64,000 bases of DNA, taken from IMG/VR virus record IMGVR_UViG_3300027586_000007, positions 1-64,000 of that record; one strand, given 5' to 3'. The stretch is from a virus. Lineage: Duplodnaviria; Caudoviricetes. Below, one piece after another: positions 21,123 through 56,573 of this stretch; positions within the stretch are counted from its first letter, which is position 1; each line of letters opens with the position of its first letter. Position numbers and translations under genes: made by a program. The notes beneath the pieces are model-generated. The model saw only the letters and a program-made list of their open reading frames with translations, ran no database searches and was not told where the DNA came from.

Positions 21123-21455
21123 TTGGCAACAACAGTATATGATGTAGAAGAGATTCAACTACAAAATGGCGCAACCGTAAAGCTAAAGCCTTTAACAATT
21201 AAAGAGCTTAGAAAGTTTATGGCAGCCATTGCAAAGACAGCAGAAGTAACTACAGAAGATGAGACGCTAACCATCCTAATCGATGCTTGTGCAGTAGCAC
21301 TAGAGAAGCAGCTTCCAGATTTGGTAAAAGATAGAGACGCATTTGAGGACACTCTTGACGTTCCTACAATTAACCGCATCCTTGAAGTTTGTGGTGGCAT
21401 CAAGATGGATGATCCAAATTTGCTAGCAGCAGCGGTTCTAGCTGGTCAGAACTAG
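21123..21455 (+). CDS. Tail assembly chaperone (G-like)
   Basis: TTG start after AGGAGG; lies between tube and tape measure; slippery heptamer near the 3' end. Confidence 0.8.
   Translation: MATTVYDVEEIQLQNGATVKLKPLTIKELRKFMAAIAKTAEVTTEDETLTILIDACAVALEKQLPDLVKDRDAFEDTLDVPTINRILEVCGGIKMDDPNLLAAAVLAGQN
21416..21422 (+). promoter_or_regulatory. -1 programmed ribosomal frameshift site A AAT TTG
   Basis: X XXY YYZ heptamer in the correct frame (CCA AAT TTG); the -1 frame is open from 21413 to TAG 21781. Confidence 0.8.
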
Positions 21456-21781
21456 ATCTAGCTGCACTAGAAGGAGAAGTATTCTTAATAGGCAACTATA
21501 AGAACTACGAAGAATTGGAAGACAGTCTTTCAATGCCAGAGTTAATTCAAACCTTCTCAGCAATGCAAAAGACTGAATCAGAAAAAAGAAAGTTTCTGGC
21601 ATCCATACAAGGCATAGAGCTTGACGGTGGAGAACAAGAAGGAAGCAAGAGCTTTGAAGATGTAAAAAGAAATGCTCTTGGAATATCTGCAGATGCATCT
21701 GATGTTGTTTCATTACAAGGTCAGTTTGCTTCAGAAGCAGGGTTTGGTATCGGAGCGGGACTCGGATACAAAAAGGAGTAG
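21416..21781 (+). CDS. Tail assembly chaperone, frameshifted C-terminal part (GT-like)
   Basis: The -1 frame reads ...FASSSGSSWSELDLAALEGEVFLIGNYKNYEELEDSLSMPEL..., extending the track's 21515 ORF upstream. Confidence 0.75.
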   Translation, partial: KFASSSGSSWSELDLAALEGEVFLIGNYKNYEELEDSLSMPELIQTFSAMQKTESEKRKFLASIQGIELDGGEQEGSKSFEDVKRNALGISADASDVVSLQGQFASEAGFGIGAGLGYKKE

Positions 21782-21785
21782 GTAG

Positions 21786-24700
21786 TTGGCAGATCAAAAT
21801 ATAGTTACCAACATAACTGCGACGGCTAATTTTAGTAGCCTAACAGCGCAGTTACAAGCGGTGACCACCCAGCTTCTAAAACTTCAAGCTACAACAATTG
21901 GTTTAAATAAAAATTTAACTAGCCAAGTTGGAGTAATGAATCGTCAGTTTGACGAAACCATGCGCTCCACTGGCCAGTTTGCCAGACACTTTGTAACACT
22001 AACTTCAGACGTATCTAAGTTCGGACAGAACCTAGATAGCGGAAGAATGAAGCTAGGGCAATACTTTAGAACCTGGCAAGGACATACACAAAAAACTAGC
22101 TCATTAGTTAGAGACTTAGCTAAACAGCAAGTAATGCTTGAGAACGCAATCATACAGCCGTTAGGTAAAAACGCTCAAGGATTAATGCAATACAACGTAA
22201 TGGTTCAATCTGGACTAGACGCAACAAAAAATAAGTCTGCATTATTAAGACAAGAACTATCCATTATGAACAAGGTAATGATGGATGGGTCTAACCAGCT
22301 TATTAACTGGGGTAAGAATACACAGTGGGCTGGTAGACAACTTACTGTAGGACTTACAGTACCTCTAGCAGCATTTGGAATGGCTGCAGCAAAAGCATTT
22401 AGGCAAGCAGACGAAGAGCTTGTAAGACTTACAAAGGTTTATGGTGGATTAACAGCAACATCATCAGCAGACCTGTTAAAAGTTAGAAAAGATGTATCAG
22501 CTCTGTCTAGAGAATTAGCATCTGGGTTAGGTGCAAACTTTACAGAAACAATTGCCTTGGCCGCTGACATTGCTGCAACTGGTAAAGAGGGCGTAGATCT
22601 TCTAGACTCAACAAGACAAACAACTAGACTTGCAATTCTTGGTGAAGTTGATAGACAAGAGGCAATGAAAGCTACTCTATCAATTCAAACAGCATTTGGG
22701 CAAAGTACAGAAGAGCTTGCTCAATCCATTGACTTTCTTAACGCAGTTGAAAACCAAACTTCAACAAGCCTTGCAGATTTAGTAGAGGCTATCCCTAAAG
22801 CTGGCCCAGTTGTAAAAGCATTGGGTGGAGATGTTCAAGATCTTGCACTTTATTTAACAGCAATGCGTGAGGGTGGAATTAATGCTTCAGAAGGAGCTAA
22901 CGCACTAAAGTCGGCATTAGCGTCGATAATTAATCCAACCAAGGTTGCTAAAGAGCAGTTCATGGGAATGGGAATTGATTTAGCTGGAATTGTTAATAAA
23001 AATGCTGGCAACTTAACTGGAACAATCATGGCCCTTAAGGATTCTTTAGACTCACTACAACCATTGCAAAGAGCAAGAGCAATCGAGCAGCTATTTGGAA
23101 AGTTCCAGTTTGCAAGAATCAATGCGTTGTTTGAAAACCTTGGAAAAGAAGGAAGTCAGACTTTACAAGTATTAGACTTAATGAAAGCTAGTACACAAGA
23201 TTTAGCTAGTATATCTGAGCGAGAATTAAAAGCAATGACAGAGTCTGCTTCTGGTAAATACAGAAGAGCACTTGAAGCCGTAAAGGCAGACCTTGCAGTA
23301 ATTGGAGAGCAATTCTTAAAAGTAGGAACATTTGTATTAAATGCAATTGATGGAATTGTAAAGTTTATTGGAAATCTTCCTGGACCTATTAAAGCAGTAC
23401 TAGGATTTATTGGAAGTCTTACAGCAATTGCTGGACCTATTATTATGTTAACTGGTGTACTCGCCAACTTCTTTGGATATATAATAAAAGGAATATTTGC
23501 GTTAAAGAATATTGGCAAAGGCGGAACAGGATTTAAGCTATTAACACCAGAGTTAATGGCAGCATCAAATGCTGCAAAAACCGTAGAGCAATCATTTTAT
23601 AGTGACACAAAAGCAGCTGCTACATTTTCAGATGCAGTCTTAACTTTAGCAGCGTCATTTGATAAACTAAAATTAAGCGCCATGTCTTCTACTGTTGCAA
23701 CAAGCAATAGCATGTCTACTGTAGCAGGAAGCCCAGTTTTGCGTGGCGGAGGAAGAATTGTAGACAAAGACAACCCTCTTGTAGGTAGACCTTATTCAAG
23801 AGACATGTCTCACGTTATTCCAACTGGATCAAAAACTGCAGAACAAAGAGCAGGTGAAACAATATTCTCTACTGTTCCTGGTCCTAAGCCAGTAAACCTA
23901 AGACTTTCAAATTCACCACAAACATACATGAATGATGATCTTCCAAGAATTCCTGGAGTTACTTCAGTAAATGGAGTCTCTAATGGTATAGTAGCAGCAG
24001 AAGCAGCAAAATGGCATTCAATGACGGCAGCAATTGCTATGCAGTCAAAAGCAGAATTAGCATTACTTAAAACAGAAGTAGCTGCTACAGGAACAGTAAC
24101 TGCGTCATTAACAGATTCATACCAAGCATTACTTCCACAAATGACAAAGATAACTTCTTTGGCAGCAGACGAAACTGCTTTAATTGTTAAGCAGCTACAA
24201 GCTGGTAAGATTACAGTAGAAGCAGCAAGAGCTAAAATATTTGCATTAAATGCACAAGTAGAAGCAATGATGGTTCAAACAGCACAAGGTGTTGCAGCAG
24301 CTCAAGCAAGAACTATTAGTTTGACTACAGTGCCATTAACAACTCAGCCAGTTGTAAGCGCAGCTGGAAAATCAAACATGAAAGAGCTTTTCCATAAATC
24401 AGAAACATCTAAGTTAGTAGACTCAATAGCACGTGGTCTTGGAGTTAGAACTTCTGGAGCTGGTTATAGTATTCAAACAACAAAGCCTAGATTTAATGAA
24501 GGCGGTAAGGTTGAAAAGTTTAGTGCAAATAAAACACGGGTTACTGGACCAGCATCAATTGACTATGATGATAGAATGGGATCCGTACCGCTTGGTGGAT
24601 ATGTATTAAATCAGGAGGCGTCATTAGACCCAAGAAACGCAGCATTAGTCGCAGCAGCACCTTCAACACATAAAGATTCTGGAAGCAACATCACTGCCTT

Positions 24701-27700
24701 GCTTACTCCACAGGAGACAGTGTTTGGTCCAGGACTACAGAATAACCCAGAACTTTTTAGAGCAGTAGATGCTGCCAACAATGGCACACCACTGCAAGCA
24801 AACATGGCTGGCGGAAACATTACACTCTCTAGATCTAATTATGGTTTAGTACCACCGTCTGCTGCAATAATAAGAGGCTTGTTTACATCAAATAGAACAG
24901 CATATAGAAAACAGTTAGTTACACTAGCAGAAAAAAGAAATTTAGAAAGAGCAGCCGTAAGAGAAAGAGATGCACAGTATGTAGGCGGTTATGGATCCAG
25001 ATCTTGGTTAGCTAGAGGAGCAACAACAAGGTCCGTTCTTAACGACTATATAAAGTCTTTACCTGCTGGAGAAAGAAGAAGAGCTGCAAGCATACTAGAA
25101 GATTTTTCTGGCTCTATAAGAACTGGCAGAGGCGGAATGGACAAAGGATTTGCCAGAGACACCTTTACAATTGAGCCAGGGCATTTAGAGCGTGGTGGGG
25201 CACTTGATAAATTACTAGCAAAGAATAAACTGCCACCATTGGACCTTGAAAGAATTACACACGCTACGCATTTAACTAGAGCATCAGTGAGAGATGGTAG
25301 AAGATTTGTAAGTAAGTATACTGTTGATTATGATTCAAGATCTAATCTTCAGGCAAACCATGGAACCCTAATTGCAAAAAATTTCTTAGAAAGAAATATG
25401 TCTCGTACAGGTAAGTATGACACAATTATGCAACGTGCAGGCGTTCATAGATCAAAATGGTCAGATACCGAAAAAGAAATTGATGCAAAAATTGCTGCGT
25501 CATTAAAGGGCAAAGAGTCAAAGAAAATTGGAGATGAAAAGGGAGACATAACCTTTGATTCATTTATCCCATTTATAGATTCAAGCATTGTTGCTGCAGG
25601 AGGATCTGCGGCTAAGCTAAAGCTTCTAAAAAGAAATGTAGTAGAAAGAAAAAATGCTGGCGGAATGATTGGTGGTTCTGTTACAAAGGGCAAGCGCTCA
25701 TACGGGAGACCACTATTCCTTGGAATGCCTAGAAGAATTAAAGATGTTGAGCAACAAAGAAAAGCTAGACTTCATATGGAAGAAATTAATACTGGACTTA
25801 AAAACAGTAGGTTTGCTTCTATGGAGCCAACAGATTTTGGTAAATTAATAACACCTACATCTGGAAGAAGTTTCCCTGTACCAGGAATCGGTGGGGTATA
25901 TGAAAAGCCAGATGGAACAAGAGTATTCGTTAAACCAGTTATGGATGAAACTGCTGCATTAGCCGAACAACGTGCAACCATCATTGCAAGGCAAGCACAC
26001 GGACTTAATTCTCCACAACAATCAATTAGAACAATGATTGATCCAACTGATCCAACTGGCAAAAGAAAGCTTATTGTTTTAGAGTCTCCATACAATGAGG
26101 CATTTGCTAAGCAGTCAGCAGATTTTACAAAGAAAGATTATTTTAAGCAATTAGTAGCAGCTAACCTAAGAGGCGATAAAGATTTAGGTAGAGGTAATCT
26201 CTACGGAGGCACACTAGCAGATGTAGGAACCGCTGGTGTATTCAAGACGGCTTCTGGTAAGAGAGCTTACGAACCAGAGATGATATCAATGTCAGACCAA
26301 GCACGTATTAACTTGCTTGGAGTAAGGGGCGGAGCAAAGAGATTCTTTGCAGAATCAACATTAAACATACCAAAGGGGATGACACCAAAGCAATATCATG
26401 AAGCAATGATTGCTGAAATTGATACAGTTCTTCCAGCATTAAAGAAAACTATTTCACAATTTAATTTAAATGCAGAAGAGTCAGCTGTATATGCATCTAT
26501 GATTAGAAGACTTGAGCAGGGCAGGAATGTTAACTGGCAAGAATTTCATGGAATTCATTCTGCAGTAAAGCCAGCCAATGGTGTGGCATTAACTCCAGCA
26601 GCATTAAAGAAGCTAAAGGAAGAAGCAGAATTAAGAATAAGACAAAAAGGACATGCAATATCACTTGCAGACAATTCCTTTAAGACACCTTTAAATGGAT
26701 TTAATCATGGAGGAACAATTGGCAATGTCCTTAAGGGATTAGCTATGAGAAGGATTGGTGCAGGATTTGGACCAACTGGAGCACCTAAGCCTAGTGCATA
26801 TGAGTCTGCTCCATGGGGTGTTAACTCGTTATCTATTGAAATGGCAAACACATTGTTTGCAAGTTCTGGTTTAAGAAAACATACACAAAAGCTACTCTAT
26901 GATAAGTTTGCCGCTGCAATGGCAAGAGAAAAGCCTTATGGCTATGTTAAGGATGCACAAGGTTCACTAAAGAATGCTCTTGAGCCATCATCATTAGATT
27001 CAGTAATTAGACAAGCAGCTAGCGATTTAGTTGGCGATAGAAATCTATTAAGACAGCTATCTCCAATCGATAAAGATATTCTTAGAAACAAATATTTAAA
27101 TTGGGATTCAAGAAAAGATACACCAATGACTGCAGAGCTAAAGAAGAAAATCTTTAGCATCGATGGTAAAAGAGAAATGGGTGGACCAGTATCTCCAGGA
27201 CAAAATTATGTTGTCGGAGAAAAGGGCCCAGAAATATTTAGTCCTTCTCAAAGCGGAAAGATTATTCCTGGATACGAAATAGGCGGAGTTATTCGTTACG
27301 GAAAAGATTCATATGGTCGTAAGGGAAATCCTGCGGCTCGTGCAGCACAAGAAAGAGCTAAGGCAGAACGTGCAGCAGCATATGTTCCTGCCCCAGTAGA
27401 AGCACCTGAGCGTAAGCCTGGTCCATTGACTGGATCAAAAACAACAGTAGTTGGCAATGGCGGTGTTAGAACGAACCAATACGGGGTACAAGGTTCTTTG
27501 CCATATATGCCTGGACTCACATTAGGTCATGCAGCTTTAAATAGAACACAAGCAGCTCTACTATCTGCCGCAAAACAAATAGAGATGTCACTCTTTGCAT
27601 TTGGTACAAGCGTTAAAAAAGATGCTCTTATGACTGGAAGAGTCATAAAGTATTCTGGAGACCAACTTGTGGTTGGAGCAAGAATGTTGCCAGGACAAAT

Positions 27701-30572
27701 TAAATCAGCACTAACCCCATTGGTAACTGGTATAAAATACATAGGTTCACAGATTTCTACAACTGCTAAAGCAGTTGGTGCTCAAATAAAAGCAGCTGGT
27801 TCATATGTTAAGGGTTGGGCGGCTTCACCTCCACCTGTAGCACCAGGAGCTTATGGCGGAGCAACTCTAGGACAAAACTTTGCTGCAAACGCAAGGTATA
27901 CAACTTCTAACATGCTTCATCCAATTCAATATTTAAAGAATAAAGGAATGATAAACCCAGCAACATTCGGACAAGGAGCGGTTGGAAGCACAGTTGGAAT
28001 GATGGGTGGTATGGCAGTTGGCGGAATGGTTGGAGAAAAATTTGGCGGACAAAATGGTGCAATGATGGGCAGCATGGCTGGAATGATGGGCGGACAAGCA
28101 ATTGTAAAGGGCATTGGTGGCAAGATTGCATCAAGAGCCGCAGCTAGCGCAGCAACAGCAGGACTGGCTTCAGCAGGTTTTGGAGCAACCGCCGCAGCAG
28201 CCGCAGGATTAGTTGCGCCGCTTGCAGCAGTAACAGCAGCAGTTTATGTTGGATATAAAGCCTGGAAACATTATAAAGAAGGACAAACTCTTAACATATC
28301 TACATTTGGTCTTACTGCTGAAGCAGCTAAAAAAGCTAATCTAAGATTTACAGACTTTGGTTCAAAAATAAAAGATACTATTCAAGATTCAAAAGATATG
28401 GCTGCTGCAAATAAGCTTGTGTATGAAAGCATGAAGGATGGCGGAACACCGTTCCAGATGACGATTGCAGAATATAAAAAACTAAAGGTTGAAGTTAAGG
28501 AAACATTTAGTGAGCAGATTGATGCATTAGACCGTCAGCCATCCAATAAGGTGCCAGACGCAGTTCGCAGAATTAAAGAACAGCTCATAGCAGCTGGCAT
28601 GTCTGCTGAAGAAGCAACTAAAAAAGTTTATACAATGCTTCAGCTTTCAAATAAGAGCGACCAATCAATTACTGCAACAATGGGCAACGCAGACTTTAAA
28701 GCAATTACAGATCCTCAATCAGCCGCAGTATCTGCAGTTACAAGCTTTGGCAAAGACACAAAGGATCAAGGCAATAAGGAAAAAGCAGCCTCATTAAATA
28801 CAGCCTTGATGGCAACTGAGACTGGAATTAATGATTTAATTGCAAAGAGAGAAAGACTAGTAGCAAAAGATTTGACTGGAAAGACTAAGTCACTAAGTTT
28901 TGCAGAAGCTGAAAAAATAATGATTGACCAGATCAATAAATCAAAGGAAGCTGGGACAATGATTACCCAGGGAACAATTGATGAAATGGCAAAAACAAAT
29001 CCAGAAGTAAAGAAAATGATCAATGGCTCAGACACAGTTGTTAGCGTATGGCAAAAAATTAGATTGCAGGCAAAAGGATTTACTGGAGATCTTTCTCAAT
29101 TAAACGCTGCTCAAACACAATTAATTTCTGATTCATTTAATGCCATAGCAACATCTGTAGTTGCAACAAATTCAAGTAAAGACGGAATGTTGAGCAAGCA
29201 GTATTCTGCTCTTGGCAAACTAGAAGACAAGATTAAATCTTACACTAAGGCATTAAAGGGTCAAACAGTTTCTCAGCAGATATCTGATAGAGAAAAGATA
29301 TCTGCACTAAACAAGCAAATTGAAGCTAATAATAAACTTGCAGAAGCTAGAAAGAAAGCATTATCTGCTGCACAAGCAGACGCCGACCTTGGCAGACAGA
29401 TTGAAAAAACTAGACTTGAAATGCAAAATGCTTCAGCAACTGGAGACACTCAAAAAGCTCAAGAGCTAAGGCTTGATCTAGAATCATTAACAACGCAACA
29501 GCAAACAGAATCTCAAAGTAAAGCAATTGACAAAGCGAATGAAGCTGCAAATGCACCACTTAAGGCTGCCATTGAGGCAATGGGCAATAAGCAGCAAGGT
29601 CTTGCAGATAGCGCAGCACTTGCTGGTGAAAGCTTAGATAAGGTTCGTGGTAAATACGATGAGCAAAAAGCAGCAATAGACAAGGTCAATGATTCAATGA
29701 CTGCCCTTTATGGTAATGCAGCTGCAGCTGGTAAATCAGTAGAAGAATATGTTAAGACCAATAAAGAAGCAGCAGCTGGATTAGTTGCTGCAGTAGAAGC
29801 TGCCACTGGCGAAAAAATGCCAAGGTATACTGATTTTCAAAATTATGAAGGTGGAAAAGTAGTAACTAAAAAAGTTGCAGTTTCTCCACAGGCAAATGCA
29901 CTATCAATATTAGCAAAAGCAGGAACAGGTTCTGCAGTCAACGACGCACTTGCCAATAGCATTAAGGGCGGAGCAACCCTTAAAGATGTTGTAAATGCTG
30001 TAAAGGGTGTAGACGGAAAGCCAGCCCTAAGAAAAGATATTGCAGTTACAGGAAATTATTCAAATGCCATGGATGAAAATACATATAATGGAGTTAAGAC
30101 AAAGGTTTTAAATGCACAGGCTAGAAGATCAATTGCAAATCAACAGGACCTACAAATAGGAGAAACTTTTATTTGGAATGGTCAAAGATATGGCAAGAGC
30201 AAGACAGGTGGCAATATTGTTTTCATGGGTAAGGCTGCTGCTGGTGTAAAAAGTGGAGCTAGTGGAATGTACCTTGTTGGAGAAAAGGGACCAGAATTTG
30301 TTCACTTAAAAAACCGTGCCAACATTATGCCAAACGATGTTATGAATACATTAGCTGCTGCATCTCCAAGATACAACTTTAACAAAGCTCAATATAATTT
30401 AAAGGACGGAACTACTTCAGGTAATTCATATGTTGTAAATCAAAATATTTATGCGTCTGAAGGAATGGATGTCGAGGCATTGTCAAATATGATTGTTAAA
30501 AAGGCTGAAGTTGTTATTGGACAAAAGGCTAAAGTTAATGTTAAAATGGTTGGACAGGGGAAGAATATATAA
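21786..30572 (+). CDS. Tape measure protein, 2928 aa, with internal inserted domains
   Basis: TP901-like TMP core (FRQADEELVRLTKVYGG...DFLNAVENQTSTSLADLVEAIPKAGPVV...), Gly/Ala-rich hydrophobic segment, VVGEKGPE motifs; follows the chaperones. Confidence 0.92.
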   Translation: MADQNIVTNITATANFSSLTAQLQAVTTQLLKLQATTIGLNKNLTSQVGVMNRQFDETMRSTGQFARHFVTLTSDVSKFGQNLDSGRMKLGQYFRTWQGHTQKTSSLVRDLAKQQVMLENAIIQPLGKNAQGLMQYNVMVQSGLDATKNKSALLRQELSIMNKVMMDGSNQLINWGKNTQWAGRQLTVGLTVPLAAFGMAAAKAFRQADEELVRLTKVYGGLTATSSADLLKVRKDVSALSRELASGLGANFTETIALAADIAATGKEGVDLLDSTRQTTRLAILGEVDRQEAMKATLSIQTAFGQSTEELAQSIDFLNAVENQTSTSLADLVEAIPKAGPVVKALGGDVQDLALYLTAMREGGINASEGANALKSALASIINPTKVAKEQFMGMGIDLAGIVNKNAGNLTGTIMALKDSLDSLQPLQRARAIEQLFGKFQFARINALFENLGKEGSQTLQVLDLMKASTQDLASISERELKAMTESASGKYRRALEAVKADLAVIGEQFLKVGTFVLNAIDGIVKFIGNLPGPIKAVLGFIGSLTAIAGPIIMLTGVLANFFGYIIKGIFALKNIGKGGTGFKLLTPELMAASNAAKTVEQSFYSDTKAAATFSDAVLTLAASFDKLKLSAMSSTVATSNSMSTVAGSPVLRGGGRIVDKDNPLVGRPYSRDMSHVIPTGSKTAEQRAGETIFSTVPGPKPVNLRLSNSPQTYMNDDLPRIPGVTSVNGVSNGIVAAEAAKWHSMTAAIAMQSKAELALLKTEVAATGTVTASLTDSYQALLPQMTKITSLAADETALIVKQLQAGKITVEAARAKIFALNAQVEAMMVQTAQGVAAAQARTISLTTVPLTTQPVVSAAGKSNMKELFHKSETSKLVDSIARGLGVRTSGAGYSIQTTKPRFNEGGKVEKFSANKTRVTGPASIDYDDRMGSVPLGGYVLNQEASLDPRNAALVAAAPSTHKDSGSNITALLTPQETVFGPGLQNNPELFRAVDAANNGTPLQANMAGGNITLSRSNYGLVPPSAAIIRGLFTSNRTAYRKQLVTLAEKRNLERAAVRERDAQYVGGYGSRSWLARGATTRSVLNDYIKSLPAGERRRAASILEDFSGSIRTGRGGMDKGFARDTFTIEPGHLERGGALDKLLAKNKLPPLDLERITHATHLTRASVRDGRRFVSKYTVDYDSRSNLQANHGTLIAKNFLERNMSRTGKYDTIMQRAGVHRSKWSDTEKEIDAKIAASLKGKESKKIGDEKGDITFDSFIPFIDSSIVAAGGSAAKLKLLKRNVVERKNAGGMIGGSVTKGKRSYGRPLFLGMPRRIKDVEQQRKARLHMEEINTGLKNSRFASMEPTDFGKLITPTSGRSFPVPGIGGVYEKPDGTRVFVKPVMDETAALAEQRATIIARQAHGLNSPQQSIRTMIDPTDPTGKRKLIVLESPYNEAFAKQSADFTKKDYFKQLVAANLRGDKDLGRGNLYGGTLADVGTAGVFKTASGKRAYEPEMISMSDQARINLLGVRGGAKRFFAESTLNIPKGMTPKQYHEAMIAEIDTVLPALKKTISQFNLNAEESAVYASMIRRLEQGRNVNWQEFHGIHSAVKPANGVALTPAALKKLKEEAELRIRQKGHAISLADNSFKTPLNGFNHGGTIGNVLKGLAMRRIGAGFGPTGAPKPSAYESAPWGVNSLSIEMANTLFASSGLRKHTQKLLYDKFAAAMAREKPYGYVKDAQGSLKNALEPSSLDSVIRQAASDLVGDRNLLRQLSPIDKDILRNKYLNWDSRKDTPMTAELKKKIFSIDGKREMGGPVSPGQNYVVGEKGPEIFSPSQSGKIIPGYEIGGVIRYGKDSYGRKGNPAARAAQERAKAERAAAYVPAPVEAPERKPGPLTGSKTTVVGNGGVRTNQYGVQGSLPYMPGLTLGHAALNRTQAALLSAAKQIEMSLFAFGTSVKKDALMTGRVIKYSGDQLVVGARMLPGQIKSALTPLVTGIKYIGSQISTTAKAVGAQIKAAGSYVKGWAASPPPVAPGAYGGATLGQNFAANARYTTSNMLHPIQYLKNKGMINPATFGQGAVGSTVGMMGGMAVGGMVGEKFGGQNGAMMGSMAGMMGGQAIVKGIGGKIASRAAASAATAGLASAGFGATAAAAAGLVAPLAAVTAAVYVGYKAWKHYKEGQTLNISTFGLTAEAAKKANLRFTDFGSKIKDTIQDSKDMAAANKLVYESMKDGGTPFQMTIAEYKKLKVEVKETFSEQIDALDRQPSNKVPDAVRRIKEQLIAAGMSAEEATKKVYTMLQLSNKSDQSITATMGNADFKAITDPQSAAVSAVTSFGKDTKDQGNKEKAASLNTALMATETGINDLIAKRERLVAKDLTGKTKSLSFAEAEKIMIDQINKSKEAGTMITQGTIDEMAKTNPEVKKMINGSDTVVSVWQKIRLQAKGFTGDLSQLNAAQTQLISDSFNAIATSVVATNSSKDGMLSKQYSALGKLEDKIKSYTKALKGQTVSQQISDREKISALNKQIEANNKLAEARKKALSAAQADADLGRQIEKTRLEMQNASATGDTQKAQELRLDLESLTTQQQTESQSKAIDKANEAANAPLKAAIEAMGNKQQGLADSAALAGESLDKVRGKYDEQKAAIDKVNDSMTALYGNAAAAGKSVEEYVKTNKEAAAGLVAAVEAATGEKMPRYTDFQNYEGGKVVTKKVAVSPQANALSILAKAGTGSAVNDALANSIKGGATLKDVVNAVKGVDGKPALRKDIAVTGNYSNAMDENTYNGVKTKVLNAQARRSIANQQDLQIGETFIWNGQRYGKSKTGGNIVFMGKAAAGVKSGASGMYLVGEKGPEFVHLKNRANIMPNDVMNTLAAASPRYNFNKAQYNLKDGTTSGNSYVVNQNIYASEGMDVEALSNMIVKKAEVVIGQKAKVNVKMVGQGKNI

Positions 30573-31021
30573 TGGCAGCTTTAGTTTTACCAGTAGGCTC
30601 AGCACTGTTTATACAGGATGCCAATGGCGTATGGCAAAAATTAACTGAACATAATAGGTCACCAATATCCGTAGACGTTCAACGTTTTGAGCAGACCGCT
30701 AGAATGGCCAATGGAAGCCTTAGAAAGCTGTTTATAGCCGATAAGAAGAACATATCTACCTCCTGGAGCATGGTTCCTTCATACTCTACTATGACCGTTG
30801 ATGCGGGCTGGGGAGCGGAAGACATAAAGACATTCTATTTAAGCGCTAAAGGTCAAGGTACATTTAATGCCAGAATAGCTTATAACACAGCCAGAACCGA
30901 AGATTTCGTTGCAAGCTTTACTTCATGTTCATTTAATTTAATTAAAAGAAATGTAAAGGACAAAGTAGCGGATACAGCACAGGCATTTTGGGATGTAACT
31001 ATTGCACTGGAAGAAGTATAA
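30572..31021 (+). CDS. Distal tail/minor tail protein
   Basis: First gene after TMP; ARMANGSLRKLFIADKK...WSMVP. Confidence 0.6.
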   Translation: MAALVLPVGSALFIQDANGVWQKLTEHNRSPISVDVQRFEQTARMANGSLRKLFIADKKNISTSWSMVPSYSTMTVDAGWGAEDIKTFYLSAKGQGTFNARIAYNTARTEDFVASFTSCSFNLIKRNVKDKVADTAQAFWDVTIALEEV

Positions 31022-34000
31022 TGCAATCAGTAAGCCAAACAACTTTAGATAAACTTAATACATCTGCTTCATATTCAATGTCAGGCGGATGCTGGCTAGA
31101 ATATAATATGAACGATTTAATAGATAAAGCAGCAGTTACAGCCACACCAGCCGATACTGCAACTCAAACAGATCCAATTACTGGCAAGACATACCAGCCA
31201 TTTAAAAAATTATTCCCCCTAACAAGTATAATAGATCCAAGAAGACCTGGAGTAGCAGGCATTAATTATTTTATATTAAATCAAAATGTTACAAATAGCA
31301 TACCTAAATATAATGTTTCATCAGACCTTCCAGTAAGAACTTATTTTTCAAGCCCAAAGAATCAATATAAATTTTGGGTTTCACCCAAGGCTGGCGGAAC
31401 AACATTAAGCAATTTTAGTTTTAGCGTAGACTACCCAGTATCACAGACTGCTGTTGCAAATACGATACTTGTTAAATTTGAGACATCTTATTCTAAGCCG
31501 TCTACATGGTCTATTAAAATACAAGATCACGCTGGCACTGAAGCAACAATATCTACAAATGGAGTTGTTCCAGACAATGGGGTATTTCAACTTTATTATA
31601 ACGGAGGCACTTGGTCAAGTGCGTCTTCATGGTCTACTACAAAATTTACAACGCCGTCTGTTCCAGTTAATGTTAAAAAAATTATTGTAGCAGTAAATAC
31701 AATTAGCGTGGCCAACTCCTACCTTGGAGTTATAGAAGTGGGTGCAAGATATATTCAAGATGTATCAAATAGAATAGTTTCTTTTCAAGTTTCAAAAACT
31801 TCATCTGATGACTCATCTGGCATTGTCCCAGTTGGATCAGTGACATCAAATGCCTTATCAATTTCACTAGAAGGATATGATAAAAAGGGTATTGAGTATG
31901 ATAAGACAATGCCATTTAACAAAGACAACATCAATCTGTACAAGAACGTGAAGGTCTCCCCATTCAATAAAATAGGAGACGATGTTATTCCACAAGGAGT
32001 ATTCTACATAGACTCATTCACTTTGTCAGAATTTGGAGACATTGACATACAGGGATTAGATGGAGCAAAGTTTCTACAAGAAATCCTAGCGCCAGATATT
32101 GTAATTCAAAATGCTCCATCACAGGCAATCATAAGAAGGCTTCTAGATAGCGTAGGGTTTACTCAATATAATTTTAATACATACGGCAAGGGGAATGCGG
32201 ATAAGGTTGACTCCGCTACTATAGTCCCACTGTATTGGTTTACAGAAGATACAAAAACAGTATGGCAACACATACAAGAGTTGTGCAAAGACACACAAAT
32301 GATAGCAACATTTGATAATAATGATATGCTTCAGTTTTATCCTAGAGACTACTTATTTGATAAAACAAGAGCGTCTAGTTTTAAATTTAGAAGTGAAACT
32401 AAGGGAGTCAATATCCCAAACATTATATCCTTAAGTAAAGAAACAGTGCCATCTGTTAAAGCAGTAAAAGTAATATACACCCCAATCATTAGCACAAACT
32501 ATCAGGGTTCATCAGATAACCTTTATGTTTCTCCGCCAGCCGCAATCGGTGCAGCCGCACTACAAAATACACTTCTAGCAACAGCTCCAGCCGAAACAGA
32601 TGCTCCAAAAGGAGTCGTCTCACTTGCGCCAATCAGCGTGTACAGCAATTTAGCAGACACATCTTTTTACAATAAGTCTGGTTACTTTTTGATTAATAAT
32701 GAAATTATTGAATATGATGCTATTGAATTTCAATACGAACCACTATCTGCTCCTAATACAGTTATAAAAAAGTGGATAACTTCTGACTCAGACATTGCAA
32801 AGTTTCTTGGAGAAAGCAAAATCAATTCTTTTAATCCTACTTTAAGATACAGAATTAAAGAAAGAAACGCATTTAATGCAACTGGGAAGGGTGTGAGTGT
32901 CGGAGAAACACACAATGTAAATATTGATGACTTAAAGGGGGAGTGGCTAGGATCTAAGTTAAATTTATCTGCAAAAACAAACGCTGCAGACCCAGGAGTA
33001 TTTTCATTAAGACAAACTGATGGATCTGGAAAATCTGTATCTAGATCATTGCTTACAATCGTTGCTCCCACATCTTCCAAGGAATACTATTGCGCCACAA
33101 TATTACCAACTCCTAGCTTTACAACACAAACATATTTTTCAATAGGAACAGCCCTATTCTTTAAGCTTGCAAAAAACAGCAACGGCAGAACAACAGGAGA
33201 ACAATTTGTTTCTGCTGGATTGGGTATAGGTCTTTCTGAAAACCTATTAAACGGATATATTTTAAAGGTTGGAACTTCACAAAATGTTGCAAACAAAGGA
33301 TTAAAGTATAGAGATGTTCAATTAGTTAAAGTTGTAAATGGAGTAGAGACTCCTGTTTCTGATACTCAAACAACAGAAGATAATTCAATTACTGGTGTCT
33401 CTGGTGGAGAATTCTATAGAATAGACGTCAGAGTGTCTAAAGCCACTGCTGGTAAATTAATATTTAAGATTAAATTTAACAACTCAGTAATAACCGCAAC
33501 AGACTCTTCACCATTAACTTTAAATAATAGAATATCTTTAATTGGAATACAAGGAGAGTCCTCTTTTGATTATGTATATACAGCATCTTTAAAGAAAGAA
33601 GATTTTGCTGGCTCATACTCTTATGACAACTACGGCTCATACGTTGGATCTGCAACAGAACTTAAAAATGTATTTGGTGACTTTACTGCAATTGGAGAAG
33701 CATCAACCTTAGCTGGGCCATGGATAAAAGAATTTGGACCAGTGGCAAGAGAAATTAAAAAGATATCAACTAGGTATGCAACAAGACCAGGTTTTGTAAA
33801 ATATCCTCAAATTATATTAAACCCCAATGTAACCTTACTTGGGTATGACGCAAACTCATTTGGAATTGATGCTTATATATTAAATAACACTGGAGCGTTT
33901 GTCGACTTGGCAGACGGCGGTCAGAAGAGTTTTATTGTAGTAGGAGAAACAGTTGCCCCGTTAGATCCGTTTGAGTACTTAGACCCAGACTTATCTGCAA

Positions 34001-34302
34001 CTAAAAATGATGAGCAGGTAGCATTTGAATCCATGTGGATACAAAAAGAGTCTGAGGCAAAAGAGCTTTCCAAATGGATGAGAACTCAATGGTCCAAGCA
34101 ACAAACAGTTATTCAAATAGATGTTTTCCCAAACCCCATTATTGAAACAGGAGATGTGGTTGAAATATCTTATCCAAATAACATGTTGTATTCCACAGAA
34201 GACGCTGGAAAAACGGCTGGCAAATATATAGTTTTAGATATTGAGCAGGGATATAGCCAAACACCATCTACAAAGCTTACCTGTAGGTCGATTTATGTTT
34301 AA
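31021..34302 (+). CDS. Large minor tail/baseplate hub-like protein
   Basis: TAATG coupling at 31021; C-terminal PNPIIETGDVVEISYP...YIVLDIEQ OB-like hub ending. Confidence 0.6.
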   Translation: MQSVSQTTLDKLNTSASYSMSGGCWLEYNMNDLIDKAAVTATPADTATQTDPITGKTYQPFKKLFPLTSIIDPRRPGVAGINYFILNQNVTNSIPKYNVSSDLPVRTYFSSPKNQYKFWVSPKAGGTTLSNFSFSVDYPVSQTAVANTILVKFETSYSKPSTWSIKIQDHAGTEATISTNGVVPDNGVFQLYYNGGTWSSASSWSTTKFTTPSVPVNVKKIIVAVNTISVANSYLGVIEVGARYIQDVSNRIVSFQVSKTSSDDSSGIVPVGSVTSNALSISLEGYDKKGIEYDKTMPFNKDNINLYKNVKVSPFNKIGDDVIPQGVFYIDSFTLSEFGDIDIQGLDGAKFLQEILAPDIVIQNAPSQAIIRRLLDSVGFTQYNFNTYGKGNADKVDSATIVPLYWFTEDTKTVWQHIQELCKDTQMIATFDNNDMLQFYPRDYLFDKTRASSFKFRSETKGVNIPNIISLSKETVPSVKAVKVIYTPIISTNYQGSSDNLYVSPPAAIGAAALQNTLLATAPAETDAPKGVVSLAPISVYSNLADTSFYNKSGYFLINNEIIEYDAIEFQYEPLSAPNTVIKKWITSDSDIAKFLGESKINSFNPTLRYRIKERNAFNATGKGVSVGETHNVNIDDLKGEWLGSKLNLSAKTNAADPGVFSLRQTDGSGKSVSRSLLTIVAPTSSKEYYCATILPTPSFTTQTYFSIGTALFFKLAKNSNGRTTGEQFVSAGLGIGLSENLLNGYILKVGTSQNVANKGLKYRDVQLVKVVNGVETPVSDTQTTEDNSITGVSGGEFYRIDVRVSKATAGKLIFKIKFNNSVITATDSSPLTLNNRISLIGIQGESSFDYVYTASLKKEDFAGSYSYDNYGSYVGSATELKNVFGDFTAIGEASTLAGPWIKEFGPVAREIKKISTRYATRPGFVKYPQIILNPNVTLLGYDANSFGIDAYILNNTGAFVDLADGGQKSFIVVGETVAPLDPFEYLDPDLSATKNDEQVAFESMWIQKESEAKELSKWMRTQWSKQQTVIQIDVFPNPIIETGDVVEISYPNNMLYSTEDAGKTAGKYIVLDIEQGYSQTPSTKLTCRSIYV

Positions 34303-53722: not shown

Positions 53723-55525
53723 ATGTCATTAGACTTTTCAGAATTTATAGAAATCCTTGACGGAGAAGAGTTTGAGGAAAAGCCAGTAGACCTACAGACT
53801 TTTGTAACTAGCCCCGACTATCTTGGCCTGCCTCCGCTTTCAGAAAATCAGTATACTCTTATAGAAAGAAGCTCCCAGATATATAAGGAGTCTACTTTAA
53901 TAAAGCTGTATGGCGAAGAGCTTGGCAAAAAACTATTTAAGCAAACCTGTGTTGAAGTTATTGCACAGTTAGGAAAAGGATCTGGCAAAGACTACTCGTC
54001 AACAATTGCAGTTGCATATATAGTACATTTACTATTATGTCTAAAAGACCCAGCGGCCTATTATGGTAAGCCACCCAGAGATGCAATTGATATTTTAAAT
54101 ATTGCAATAAACTCACAACAAGCAAACAATGTTTTCTTTAAGGGATTCAAGATGAGAATTGAAGTTTCCCCATGGTTTGCTGGGAAATATACCGACAAGG
54201 CATCAGAAATTAAATTTGATAAATCAATTACAGTTCATTCAGGCCACTCAGAAAGAGAAGCTTGGGAAGGGTACAACGTTCTAGTAGTGATACTTGACGA
54301 GATATCAGGCTTTGCAACAGAAAATACTAGCGGTCACGATCAAGCAAAAACAGCAGACGCCATATACGATATGTATAGAGCTTCGGTTGACTCTCGTTTT
54401 CCAGATGTAGGTAAAGTTATTTTACTATCTTTCCCACGCTTCAAAAATGACCCTATACAAAAATTTTATGAATCAGTAATAGCGGAAAAAGAAACAATTA
54501 TTAGAACAGAAATATTGAAGCTGGATCAAGATTTGCCAGACGGCACAGAAGGCAATGAGTTTGAGGTGGCATGGGAAGAAGATCATATAGTTTCTTATGT
54601 TTATCCCAGAGTGTTTGCACTTAAGAGACCAACATGGGAAGTAAATCCAACAAAAAAAATAACAGATTTTACTGTTGCTTTTCATAAGAATGCGCCAGAT
54701 GCACTTGGTAGATTTGCTTGTATGCCATCAGATGCTGTAGATGCATTTTTTAAGTCTAGAGAAAAAATTGAGAAGGCTTTTAACCAAGCTAGCTTAGCCG
54801 TAGATAAATTTGGAAGACTTGAAGATTGGTTTAAGCCAGATCTAGAAAAAGATTATTTTATACATGTAGACTTAGCCCAGAAGCACGACCATTGTGCAGT
54901 AGCTATGGGACATGTTAATAAGTGGGTAGAGGTAAAAGTTACAGATACCTACTCCCAGCCAGCCCCTATTGTAGAAATTGATGCAGTTAGATTTTGGACA
55001 CCAACCCCAGATAAATCTGTTGATTTTACTGAAGTAAAAGACTACATCCTTGCACTAAGAACTAGAGGGTTTAACATTAAGATGTGTACTTTTGACAGAT
55101 GGAACTCTCACGATATGATGCAACAACTAAAACAATATGGCATCAATACAGAGATTCTGTCTGTCGCTAAAAAACATTATGACGATATGGCTATGGTAAT
55201 TTTAGAAGAAAGACTATCTGGTCCACACATACCCTTGCTTATAGATGAGTTGCTTCAGTTGAGAATTATGAGAGACAAGGTTGATCACCCAAGAAAAGGT
55301 TCAAAGGATTTAGCAGATGCTGTATGCGGAGCAGTATATAATTCAATTAGTAGAACCAGAATGCGTAGAGACGAAGAAATAAAAATTCATGACTATGAAT
55401 CTATGAGCTATGACAATGATTTTGGAGTCAGCGATGGCGAAGTAGAAAATGTATACAATATGATTAGGGCGCCAAGAATGCCTGAGAGCTTAGCAAGATC
55501 AATAGAAAATATGGAGATAATATGA
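53723..55525 (+). CDS. terL: Terminase large subunit
   Basis: GKGSGKD Walker A, VILDEISGF Walker B, LLSFPR, HVDLA...DH nuclease, KDLADAV. Confidence 0.9.
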   Translation: MSLDFSEFIEILDGEEFEEKPVDLQTFVTSPDYLGLPPLSENQYTLIERSSQIYKESTLIKLYGEELGKKLFKQTCVEVIAQLGKGSGKDYSSTIAVAYIVHLLLCLKDPAAYYGKPPRDAIDILNIAINSQQANNVFFKGFKMRIEVSPWFAGKYTDKASEIKFDKSITVHSGHSEREAWEGYNVLVVILDEISGFATENTSGHDQAKTADAIYDMYRASVDSRFPDVGKVILLSFPRFKNDPIQKFYESVIAEKETIIRTEILKLDQDLPDGTEGNEFEVAWEEDHIVSYVYPRVFALKRPTWEVNPTKKITDFTVAFHKNAPDALGRFACMPSDAVDAFFKSREKIEKAFNQASLAVDKFGRLEDWFKPDLEKDYFIHVDLAQKHDHCAVAMGHVNKWVEVKVTDTYSQPAPIVEIDAVRFWTPTPDKSVDFTEVKDYILALRTRGFNIKMCTFDRWNSHDMMQQLKQYGINTEILSVAKKHYDDMAMVILEERLSGPHIPLLIDELLQLRIMRDKVDHPRKGSKDLADAVCGAVYNSISRTRMRRDEEIKIHDYESMSYDNDFGVSDGEVENVYNMIRAPRMPESLARSIENMEII

Positions 55526-55778: not shown

Positions 55779-55852
55779 GTGCCAATAGCTTAGTTGGTTA
55801 AAGCCCCGAACTCATAATTCGGTAATCGTAGGTTCAAGTCCTACTTGGCACA
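55779..55852 (+). tRNA. tRNA with CAT anticodon (Ile2-lysidine type or elongator Met)
   Basis: Acceptor GTGCCAA/TTGGCAC, D-arm GCTT/AAGC, anticodon arm CCGAA-CTCATAA-TTCGG, T-arm GTAGG-TTCAAGT-CCTAC; no encoded CCA. Confidence 0.9.
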
Positions 55853-55871
55853 CATGAAACGGGAGGAAAAA

Positions 55872-56475: not shown

Positions 56476-56548
56476 GCCTTCGTAGCTCAGGGGATAGAGC
56501 AACTGCCTTCTAAGCAGTAGGTCGCAGGTTCAATTCCTGCCGACGGCA
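56476..56548 (+). tRNA. tRNA-Arg (TCT)
   Basis: GCCTTCG/CGACGGC acceptor (one T-C mismatch), ACTGC-CTTCTAA-GCAGT anticodon arm, GCAGG-TTCAATT-CCTGC T-arm. Confidence 0.9.
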
Positions 56549-56573
56549 CAGCATGTTTTTTTAATGCTATAAA

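Follow-up and report, generated by a model that had tools for sequence, protein, structure and literature searches.

What is a kinase-like domain doing inside a tape measure protein? The question is raised by a 64,000-nucleotide stretch of viral DNA (the window, meaning the whole of the DNA analysed), which corresponds to positions 1 to 64,000 of the IMG/VR virus record IMGVR_UViG_3300027586_000007 (Duplodnaviria; Caudoviricetes). The tape measure protein (TMP) gene of this phage (21786–30572, on the plus strand, as are all features described within it) is listed by the open reading frame (ORF) program with a TTG start and encodes 2928 amino acids, in the middle of which the motifs of a HipA/PI3K-like kinase had been recognized from the single sequence (hereafter, the original prediction). 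We propose, with a probability of about 0.5, that residues ~1318–1601 of this TMP correspond to a complete, two-lobed and active atypical kinase domain, carried as an exchangeable cassette, that would probably be injected with the TMP and phosphorylate a host target.

All five motifs of the original prediction are present in frame in the TMP ORF and in the order announced: GIGGVYEK (nucleotides 25884–25907), VFVKP (25923–25937), LAEQRAT (25959–25979), LRGDKDLGRGNL (26166–26201) and LADVGTAGVF (26214–26243). The key residues, in TMP numbering, are K1383, E1394, D1464, D1466, N1471 and D1479. They are distributed over a Gly-rich loop located between strands beta-1 and beta-2 on the secondary-structure map (residues 1358–1370; 25857–25895), in which G1360 and G1370 are invariant, the beta-3 lysine that binds adenosine triphosphate (ATP) (Lys1383 in VFVKP; 25932–25934), the alpha-C glutamate (Glu1394; 25965–25967), the catalytic loop R1462-G-D1464-K-D1466-L-x-x-x-N1471 (26169–26198) and the metal-binding DxG, D1479-V-G1481 (26220–26228). 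A further conserved loop, A1489-S1490-G-x-R1493 (26250–26264), lies 10–14 residues past the DxG, and its Ser1490 is a candidate activation-loop phosphorylation site. The folded protein-kinase-like domain, for which the evidence is the structural model, its matches and the ratio of nonsynonymous to synonymous substitutions (dN/dS), covers residues 1318–1601 (approximately 25737–26588); the interval first proposed, 25880–26570, spans the Gly-rich loop to near the end of the domain but misses the N-terminal helix and strand beta-1, which begin at about nucleotide 25737. One detail of the original prediction has to be corrected, namely the replacement by Leu of the His of the usual DxHxxN: in D-L-G-R-G-N, the Leu stands at position +1 and it is a Gly that occupies the His (+2) position.

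The segment was modelled with AlphaFold2 on an alignment of 33 sequences comprising the window, IMG/VR loci and seven distant TMPs (lowest identity to the window, 24%). The model (mb48d5cd88040) has a mean predicted local distance difference test (pLDDT) score of 79.9 and a predicted template modelling (pTM) score of 0.74, with a core above 90; blocks over residues 31–310 of the modelled segment mostly range from 81 to 98, and pLDDT values below 50 are confined to the two linker ends (residues 1–26 and 333–371). The order of its elements is kinase-like, with an N-lobe beta-sheet and helix (beta-1 to beta-3, with the Gly-rich loop between the first two strands, then alpha-C, beta-4 and beta-5), followed by a helix leading into the catalytic loop, a short hairpin, the DxG and a helical C-lobe (segment residues 213–303, 10-residue block means of 80–98). 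Every motif falls on its expected structural element: Lys1383 in strand 90–96, Glu1394 in helix 99–114 and the catalytic loop after helix 160–173, as in kinases.

Structural searches with this model point to the same fold. Every row listed by Foldseek against the PDB is a kinase, with weak E-values (2e-3 to 2e-2), and rescoring of its best 1000 chains gave Z-scores of 11.9 for CotH, 11.1 for CtkA, 9.9 for PI4KII-alpha and 9.3 for LepB. CotH and CtkA are the best structural matches, with PI4KII, LepB, HipA and PI3K all within 2–3 Z units; because the top families lie so close to each other, placement of the domain in one kinase subfamily is not supported. Against the predicted viral structures of BFVD, Foldseek returned large phage virion-type proteins of 829–1340 amino acids (E-values 1.5e-5 to 2.6e-4), annotated as portal-, head-morphogenesis- or ADP-ribosyltransferase-containing, and more weakly phage proteins annotated as PI3K/PI4K. 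The language-model neighbours with a Pfam family (LepB_N, PI3_PI4_kinase and HipA_2; score 0.88) are a lead only. The kinase-fold match called for as a check of the original prediction was thus obtained, and the assignment of the predicted fold is well supported.

Conservation was examined with a hidden Markov model of the domain core, which aligned 247 near-full-length copies from the fetched proteins (27–99% identity to the window, median 59%). K1383, N1471 and D1479 are present in all 247 copies, and nearly as constant are D1466 (246), A1489 (246), S1490 (245, the other two having Thr), G1481 (244), D1464 (241) and E1394 (239, with Gln in the other eight); position 1465 is Lys or Arg in 237 copies and R1493 is kept in 227. 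Besides the predicted two-lobed fold, the domain displays sequence signatures of the protein-kinase-like (PKL) superfamily, namely the pair of beta-3 Lys and alpha-C Glu, and an Asp-x4-Asn followed by the Asp of DxG. In a non-redundant subset (60% identity cut, 48 sequences, 293 columns), only eight columns are invariant: the two Gly-loop glycines, K1383, E1394 (48/48), P1410, Q1455, N1471 and D1479; D1466 is kept in 47 of the 48 sequences. Four of the five residues named beforehand from the single sequence fall into these eight columns (hypergeometric P ~1e-6, our own arithmetic). The motif pattern is more than chance, since the named residues are near-invariant in the 247 copies and overrepresented among the invariant columns, and the conservation of catalytic residues among homologues expected by the original prediction is confirmed. 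The dN/dS ratio is 0.12–0.22 against six relatives, with dS near saturation, and by this measure the domain is under purifying selection. Across the 120 closest TMPs, the kinase module is ~68% identical, close to the N-terminal core (~71%), the C-terminal coiled-coil part being ~49% identical. Pseudokinases usually lose at least one of the Lys, the catalytic Asp and the DxG Asp; because these catalytic residues are here jointly invariant or nearly so, we read the domain as a predicted active ATP-dependent phosphotransferase.

The domain could not be placed in a described sequence family. Pfam, NCBIfam and PHROG scans of the domain gave no match, and PDB sequence searches, whether the query was the single sequence or a 33-sequence profile, returned only spurious short matches to proteasome-activator and WD40 proteins. 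No match to the HipA models HipA_C and HipA_2 was listed at E-values up to 10 for the window domain or any of the 33 aligned members, a search in which the HMMER filters drop most matches above ~0.1. PF00454 (PI3_PI4_kinase) does not match the domain, which lacks the His of GDRHxxN, and a search of the whole virus record with PF08757 (CotH) at E-values up to 10 was negative, whereas control genomes did match. The designation HipA/PI3K-like thus stands at the level of the fold but not as a family assignment, neither HipA, PI3K/PI4K nor CotH sequence models matching and the signature His being absent.

Relatives of the domain are nonetheless numerous in metagenomes. The module is present in 889 proteins of a 5.8-billion-protein collection, those listed being TMP-sized (mostly 2600–4300 amino acids), and 168 clusters were retrieved when 1.84 billion cluster representatives were searched exhaustively with HMMER; among the listed matches almost all are long, TMP-sized proteins and the short ones cover only part of the domain. 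A profile search for a free-standing version among proteins of 125–844 amino acids yielded only TMP fragments on short contigs. The domain was not found by tblastn in 50,697 cultured-phage records, and a pattern scan of 185,579 species genomes detected no relative. Because the tests with HipA, PI3K/PI4K and CotH sequence models failed, the domain is, as judged from sequence, a distinct new family of the atypical-kinase (PKL) superfamily, found in these searches only inside giant metagenomic TMPs of uncultured freshwater phages.

A further kinase-like cassette, distinct from the first and with the canonical motifs DxHxxN and DLG, was identified in three proteins from other metagenomic TMPs: P0250 (residues 151–367 of a TMP fragment) and the giant TMPs P0157 (residues 3642–3852) and P0151 (residues 736–933). 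Some giant TMPs have this cassette in addition to the kinase module described above. The P0250 copy, which is adjacent to the module, matches PF00454 at an E-value of 0.008, below the family cut-off; Pfam did not recognize the cassette in P0157 or P0151, and a search for relatives of the P0250 copy among proteins of similar length returned P0250 alone. Global hhalign comparison of the two cassette types (pairwise E-value 0.0028) brings their motifs into register: the Lys and the Glu pair with their counterparts, and D1466, N1471 and D1479 pair with the Asp of DxH, the Asn and the Asp of DLG, respectively. This register is consistent with the kinase reading, without being a proof of it.

The distribution of the domain among close relatives suggests that it is not part of the ruler itself. 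Scanning IMG/VR with the conserved N-terminal region of the TMP retrieved at least 585 relatives, of which the best 80, all at least 70% identical, were examined; in 56 of these, the TMP frame ends inside the fetched DNA. The kinase module is present in 21 of these 56 complete TMPs and absent from the other 35, with median lengths of 2790 versus 2302 amino acids. The whole cassette, delimited as a conservation block, covers residues 1292–1638 (25659–26699) and comprises a GG...YG linker, which forms its left edge, the kinase domain and a C-terminal helix that runs to the FNHGG junction. It is cleanly replaced in two relatives: in locus L050, which matches this TMP at 86% and 77% identity in the two flanks, residues 1108–1638 are swapped for ~130 unrelated residues, and in L057 residues 1033–1637 are swapped for ~290 unrelated residues. 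In both, the alignment resumes at residues 1638–1639, so that the right junction corresponds to the FNHGG linker. Because close relatives do without it, the kinase cassette is not needed for tail building or DNA delivery; it looks like cargo, an exchangeable accessory cassette.

The position of the domain along the TMP bears on the compartment in which it could act. Hydropathy (Kyte-Doolittle, 19-residue window, threshold at least 1.5) reveals a membrane-span-like hydrophobic segment at residues 535–573 (23388–23504), also present in relatives. A second segment at residues ~2040–2157 (27903–28256), recognized from composition and hydropathy, is rich in Gly, Met and Ala and scores above threshold at residues 2130–2157. 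Among 212 long TMPs, 197 have hydrophobic segments on both sides of the kinase. In the two relatives scanned for wall-acting domains, these are located C-terminal to segment 2 (in P0084, a CHAP domain at residues 2724–2804 and a LysM domain at 2871–2919; in P0096, an OmpA domain at 2795–2888), and the kinase is N-terminal to it. If segment 2 spans the membrane, the kinase would therefore be on the side opposite to the wall enzymes, i.e., in the cytoplasm, where ATP is.

The host in which this would happen is probably an uncultured freshwater actinobacterium. Half or more of the sampled words of this phage DNA are present in lake- or freshwater-labelled metagenome runs that come from at least 10 studies, and nine of these runs may be the assembly source. 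The major capsid protein is 56–60% identical to the capsid proteins of large Streptomyces phages, and a WhiB-like gene (PF02467, E-value 2e-12, above the family cut-off) is located ~1 kb past the end of the window (G000:C1:64942-65115, locus L046). WhiB regulators are not known outside actinobacteria and the phages that infect them. It is because the WhiB-like gene, the Streptomyces-phage-like capsid protein and the lake-metagenome sources concur that we favour such a host; the G+C content is ~38%.

The original prediction took the domain for an injected effector serving host takeover or anti-defence, and this appears plausible, with some indirect support from the optional presence of the cassette among near-identical TMPs. 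TMPs are present in about three copies per virion, and in the mechanism that we envisage these few copies would hold the kinase domain unfolded or extended in the tail lumen. At infection, they would be expelled through the tail tip, their hydrophobic stretches would enter the cytoplasmic membrane, and the kinase loop would refold on the ATP-containing, cytoplasmic side, where it could phosphorylate a host target, either protein or lipid, before any phage gene expression, with a presumed benefit to the phage. More specifically, and only tentatively, a widespread group of freshwater actinophages may push a pre-made, active kinase into the cell within the TMP and thereby have host proteins or membrane lipids phosphorylated within seconds of adsorption, before phage transcription.

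Several observations weigh against the proposal of an active, injected kinase. The fold is a predicted one, and a common fold is no proof of function; all Foldseek E-values against the PDB exceed 1e-3. No sequence-based method reached significance for a link to a kinase, be it Pfam, NCBIfam, PHROG or the sequence and profile searches of the PDB, hhalign giving a probability of 0.4% to Escherichia coli HipA and of only 10.8% to the second cassette type. The catalytic loop has the form D-L-[G/S/Q/K]-x-x-N in the 33-sequence alignment, with a conserved Leu at +1 and a variable residue (Gly, Ser, Gln or Lys) at +2, where classical kinases have Lys, and HipA and PI3K have His. The topology remains a deduction, the cytoplasmic side of the kinase being drawn from two proteins, and the divergent TMPs P0164, P0255, P0256, P0257 and P0263 have no hydrophobic stretch after the kinase. 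ATP is available in the cytoplasm only. Furthermore, a tail-tube lumen of ~4 nm is too narrow to hold three folded ~33-kDa domains next to one another, and for this reason unfolded storage followed by refolding must be assumed. Finally, the host is uncultured.

Other explanations were considered, some of which keep the kinase active. It could work in the producing cell, taking the TMP itself, chaperones or other tail proteins as substrates during tail assembly, in the way that CotH patterns the spore coat by phosphorylating coat proteins. A domain in the producing cell is certain to be folded and to have ATP at hand; Ser/Thr 1490, which is invariant and in an activation-loop-like position, could be phosphorylated in cis, and the best structural match, CotH, is itself an assembly-patterning kinase (PMC7821199). 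However, relatives with 77–86% identical flanks lack the cassette, which indicates that tail assembly does not need it; no CotB/CotG-like Ser-rich repeat substrate is visible in the TMP, and an assembly factor need not be part of the ejected protein. We consider this role unlikely. The kinase might also act where the phage enters, with a lipid or small molecule as its substrate, for instance phosphatidylinositol or another actinobacterial envelope lipid, thereby aiding channel formation or a local change of the membrane. PI4KII-alpha is among the structural matches of the model and PF00454 does not match the domain; the structural matches to the predicted fold do not separate protein from lipid substrates, and we hold this alternative to be rather unlikely.

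Alternatively, the kinase fold may not transfer phosphate, and could serve as a nucleotide-binding sensor or plug, as a pseudokinase scaffold, or for AMPylation or glutamylation as in SelO or SidJ. Kinase folds do perform other chemistry, the usual +2 residue of the catalytic loop is missing, and the domain has no sequence-level link to active kinases; the Lys, the catalytic Asp, the DxG Asp and both Gly-loop glycines are nonetheless kept over 27–99% identity, and such a role seems to us distinctly unlikely. That the motifs resemble those of a kinase by chance, the region being ordinary non-enzymatic TMP filler, is highly improbable. The lack of any matching family model would fit this explanation, but the globular model is confident, every top structural match is a kinase, and the residues named beforehand belong to the small number of invariant columns in a domain under purifying selection; we rejected chance resemblance on the grounds of the kinase-fold model, the invariance of these residues and this selection.

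Known kinases resemble the domain only in part. CotH, the atypical Ser/Thr kinase of the Bacillus spore coat (PDB 5jd9/5jda, PF08757), is the best structural match with only 6–8% identity; it is a free protein of spore-formers, whereas the domain described here is a cassette in a phage TMP, and the Asp-to-Asp spacing is 13 residues here versus 23 in CotH. The secreted kinase CtkA of Helicobacter pylori (PDB 3akj/3akk) and the HipA/HipT toxin kinases differ from our domain, which has no HipA-type Pfam match, no His in DxHxxN, no antitoxin partner and no HipA N-terminal subdomain. Similarly, unlike the lipid kinases PI4KII-alpha, MavQ, LepB and PI3K/Vps34 (PF00454, PF18640), it has neither a PF00454 match nor the GDRHxxN His, and it lacks helical and C2 accessory domains.

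As for enzymes delivered by virions, TMPs are known to carry wall-degrading enzymes, and muralytic domains are embedded in the TMP of mycobacteriophage TM4 and in Pb2 of T5. These proteins, like the relatives P0084 and P0096, share with the present TMP an enzyme cassette in an ejected tape measure and a modular, swappable layout, but the target of their enzymes is the cell wall, and no ATP is required. The T7 gp0.7 protein kinase is an early-gene product that is not carried by the virion, and T4 Alt is an ADP-ribosyltransferase packed in the head and injected ready-made; both are phage enzymes that modify host proteins at the start of infection, yet neither is part of a TMP. A related proposal concerns the phage and plasmid 'polyvalent proteins', in which truncated Ser/Thr/Tyr-type kinases were predicted (Iyer, Burroughs, Anand, de Souza and Aravind, 2017; PMC5512222, which also cites the T7 kinase). 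In both cases, a kinase-fold domain resides in a large phage protein thought to be delivered with the DNA and is proposed to modify host proteins. The polyvalent-protein kinases are, however, defined by the loss of the whole C-terminal subdomain, whereas the present model has a full helical C-lobe, and they belong to MuF-type proteins of Verrucomicrobia, Chlamydia and Bacteroidetes elements, not to a TMP; tape measure proteins are nowhere mentioned in PMC5512222. Our literature search for a kinase in a TMP or a virion found no report.

The kinase cassette is flanked by two other conservation blocks. Cassette A (residues 1009–1291; 24810–25658), immediately upstream, starts at a GG...YG linker and is present in only ~30 of 120 homologues, but is well conserved where present, a GHLE...HATHLTRA stretch being part of what is conserved. 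Neither Pfam nor the language-model atlas gave a match for it, and its AlphaFold2 model, based on a five-sequence alignment, is not confident (pLDDT 51.7). Cassette C (residues 1650–1835; 26733–27290), whose limits also take account of motif positions, lies downstream of the kinase in some two thirds of homologues and ends in a VGEKGPE unit and a GG...YG linker. The VGEKGPE unit recurs near the C-terminus of the TMP (residue 2832). In TMPs that are more distant, the kinase cassette has PGEAVIP...GNIPGF-type units on either side, and these units may be recombination junctions. Related TMPs carry cassettes of other types: CHAP and LysM in P0084, OmpA-like in P0096 and Peptidase_M23 in P0257 (locus L038).

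The TMP itself is of the TP901 type, with a PhageMin_Tail core, hydrophobic stretches and a gene position between chaperones and distal tail proteins. The core domain (PF10145) covers residues 243–438 (22512–23099; E-value 2e-27, 96.8 bits against a cut-off of 33.2), TIGR01760 matches at an E-value of 1.9e-28 (99.5 bits against 28.8) and several PHROG TMP families span roughly residues 1–860. Upstream, two small ORFs of 110 and 88 amino acids (21123–21781, plus strand) occupy the position of tail assembly chaperones, a putative function that is based on position only, and a PHROG minor-tail-protein gene follows at 30988–34302. The structural module is that of a standard siphophage, with portal, head protease, capsid, an Ig-domain protein (PHROG) at the tail-tube position, the two chaperone-position ORFs, the TMP and minor tail proteins. 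The large terminase gene (53723–55525) is ~40 kb away from the portal gene, an unusual separation, and just downstream of it lie genes for tRNA-Met(CAT) (55779–55853) and tRNA-Arg(TCT) (56476–56549). The virus record is an 81.5-kb linear contig with an estimated completeness of 76%.

The family to which this domain belongs is abundant, with its 889 proteins, and absent from the current Pfam, NCBIfam and PHROG models, and it adds a sequence family to the atypical-kinase superfamily. As a compact module of ~330 residues, its activity is directly testable by expression. If the domain is indeed an ATP-dependent kinase, the TMP would also deliver effectors that act in the cytoplasm, and the phage could manipulate its host ahead of all phage gene expression, with host Ser/Thr phospho-signalling or a defence system as examples of possible targets. 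As a swappable cassette, it would then be one of the effectors that TMPs carry in a polymorphic 'cargo bay'.

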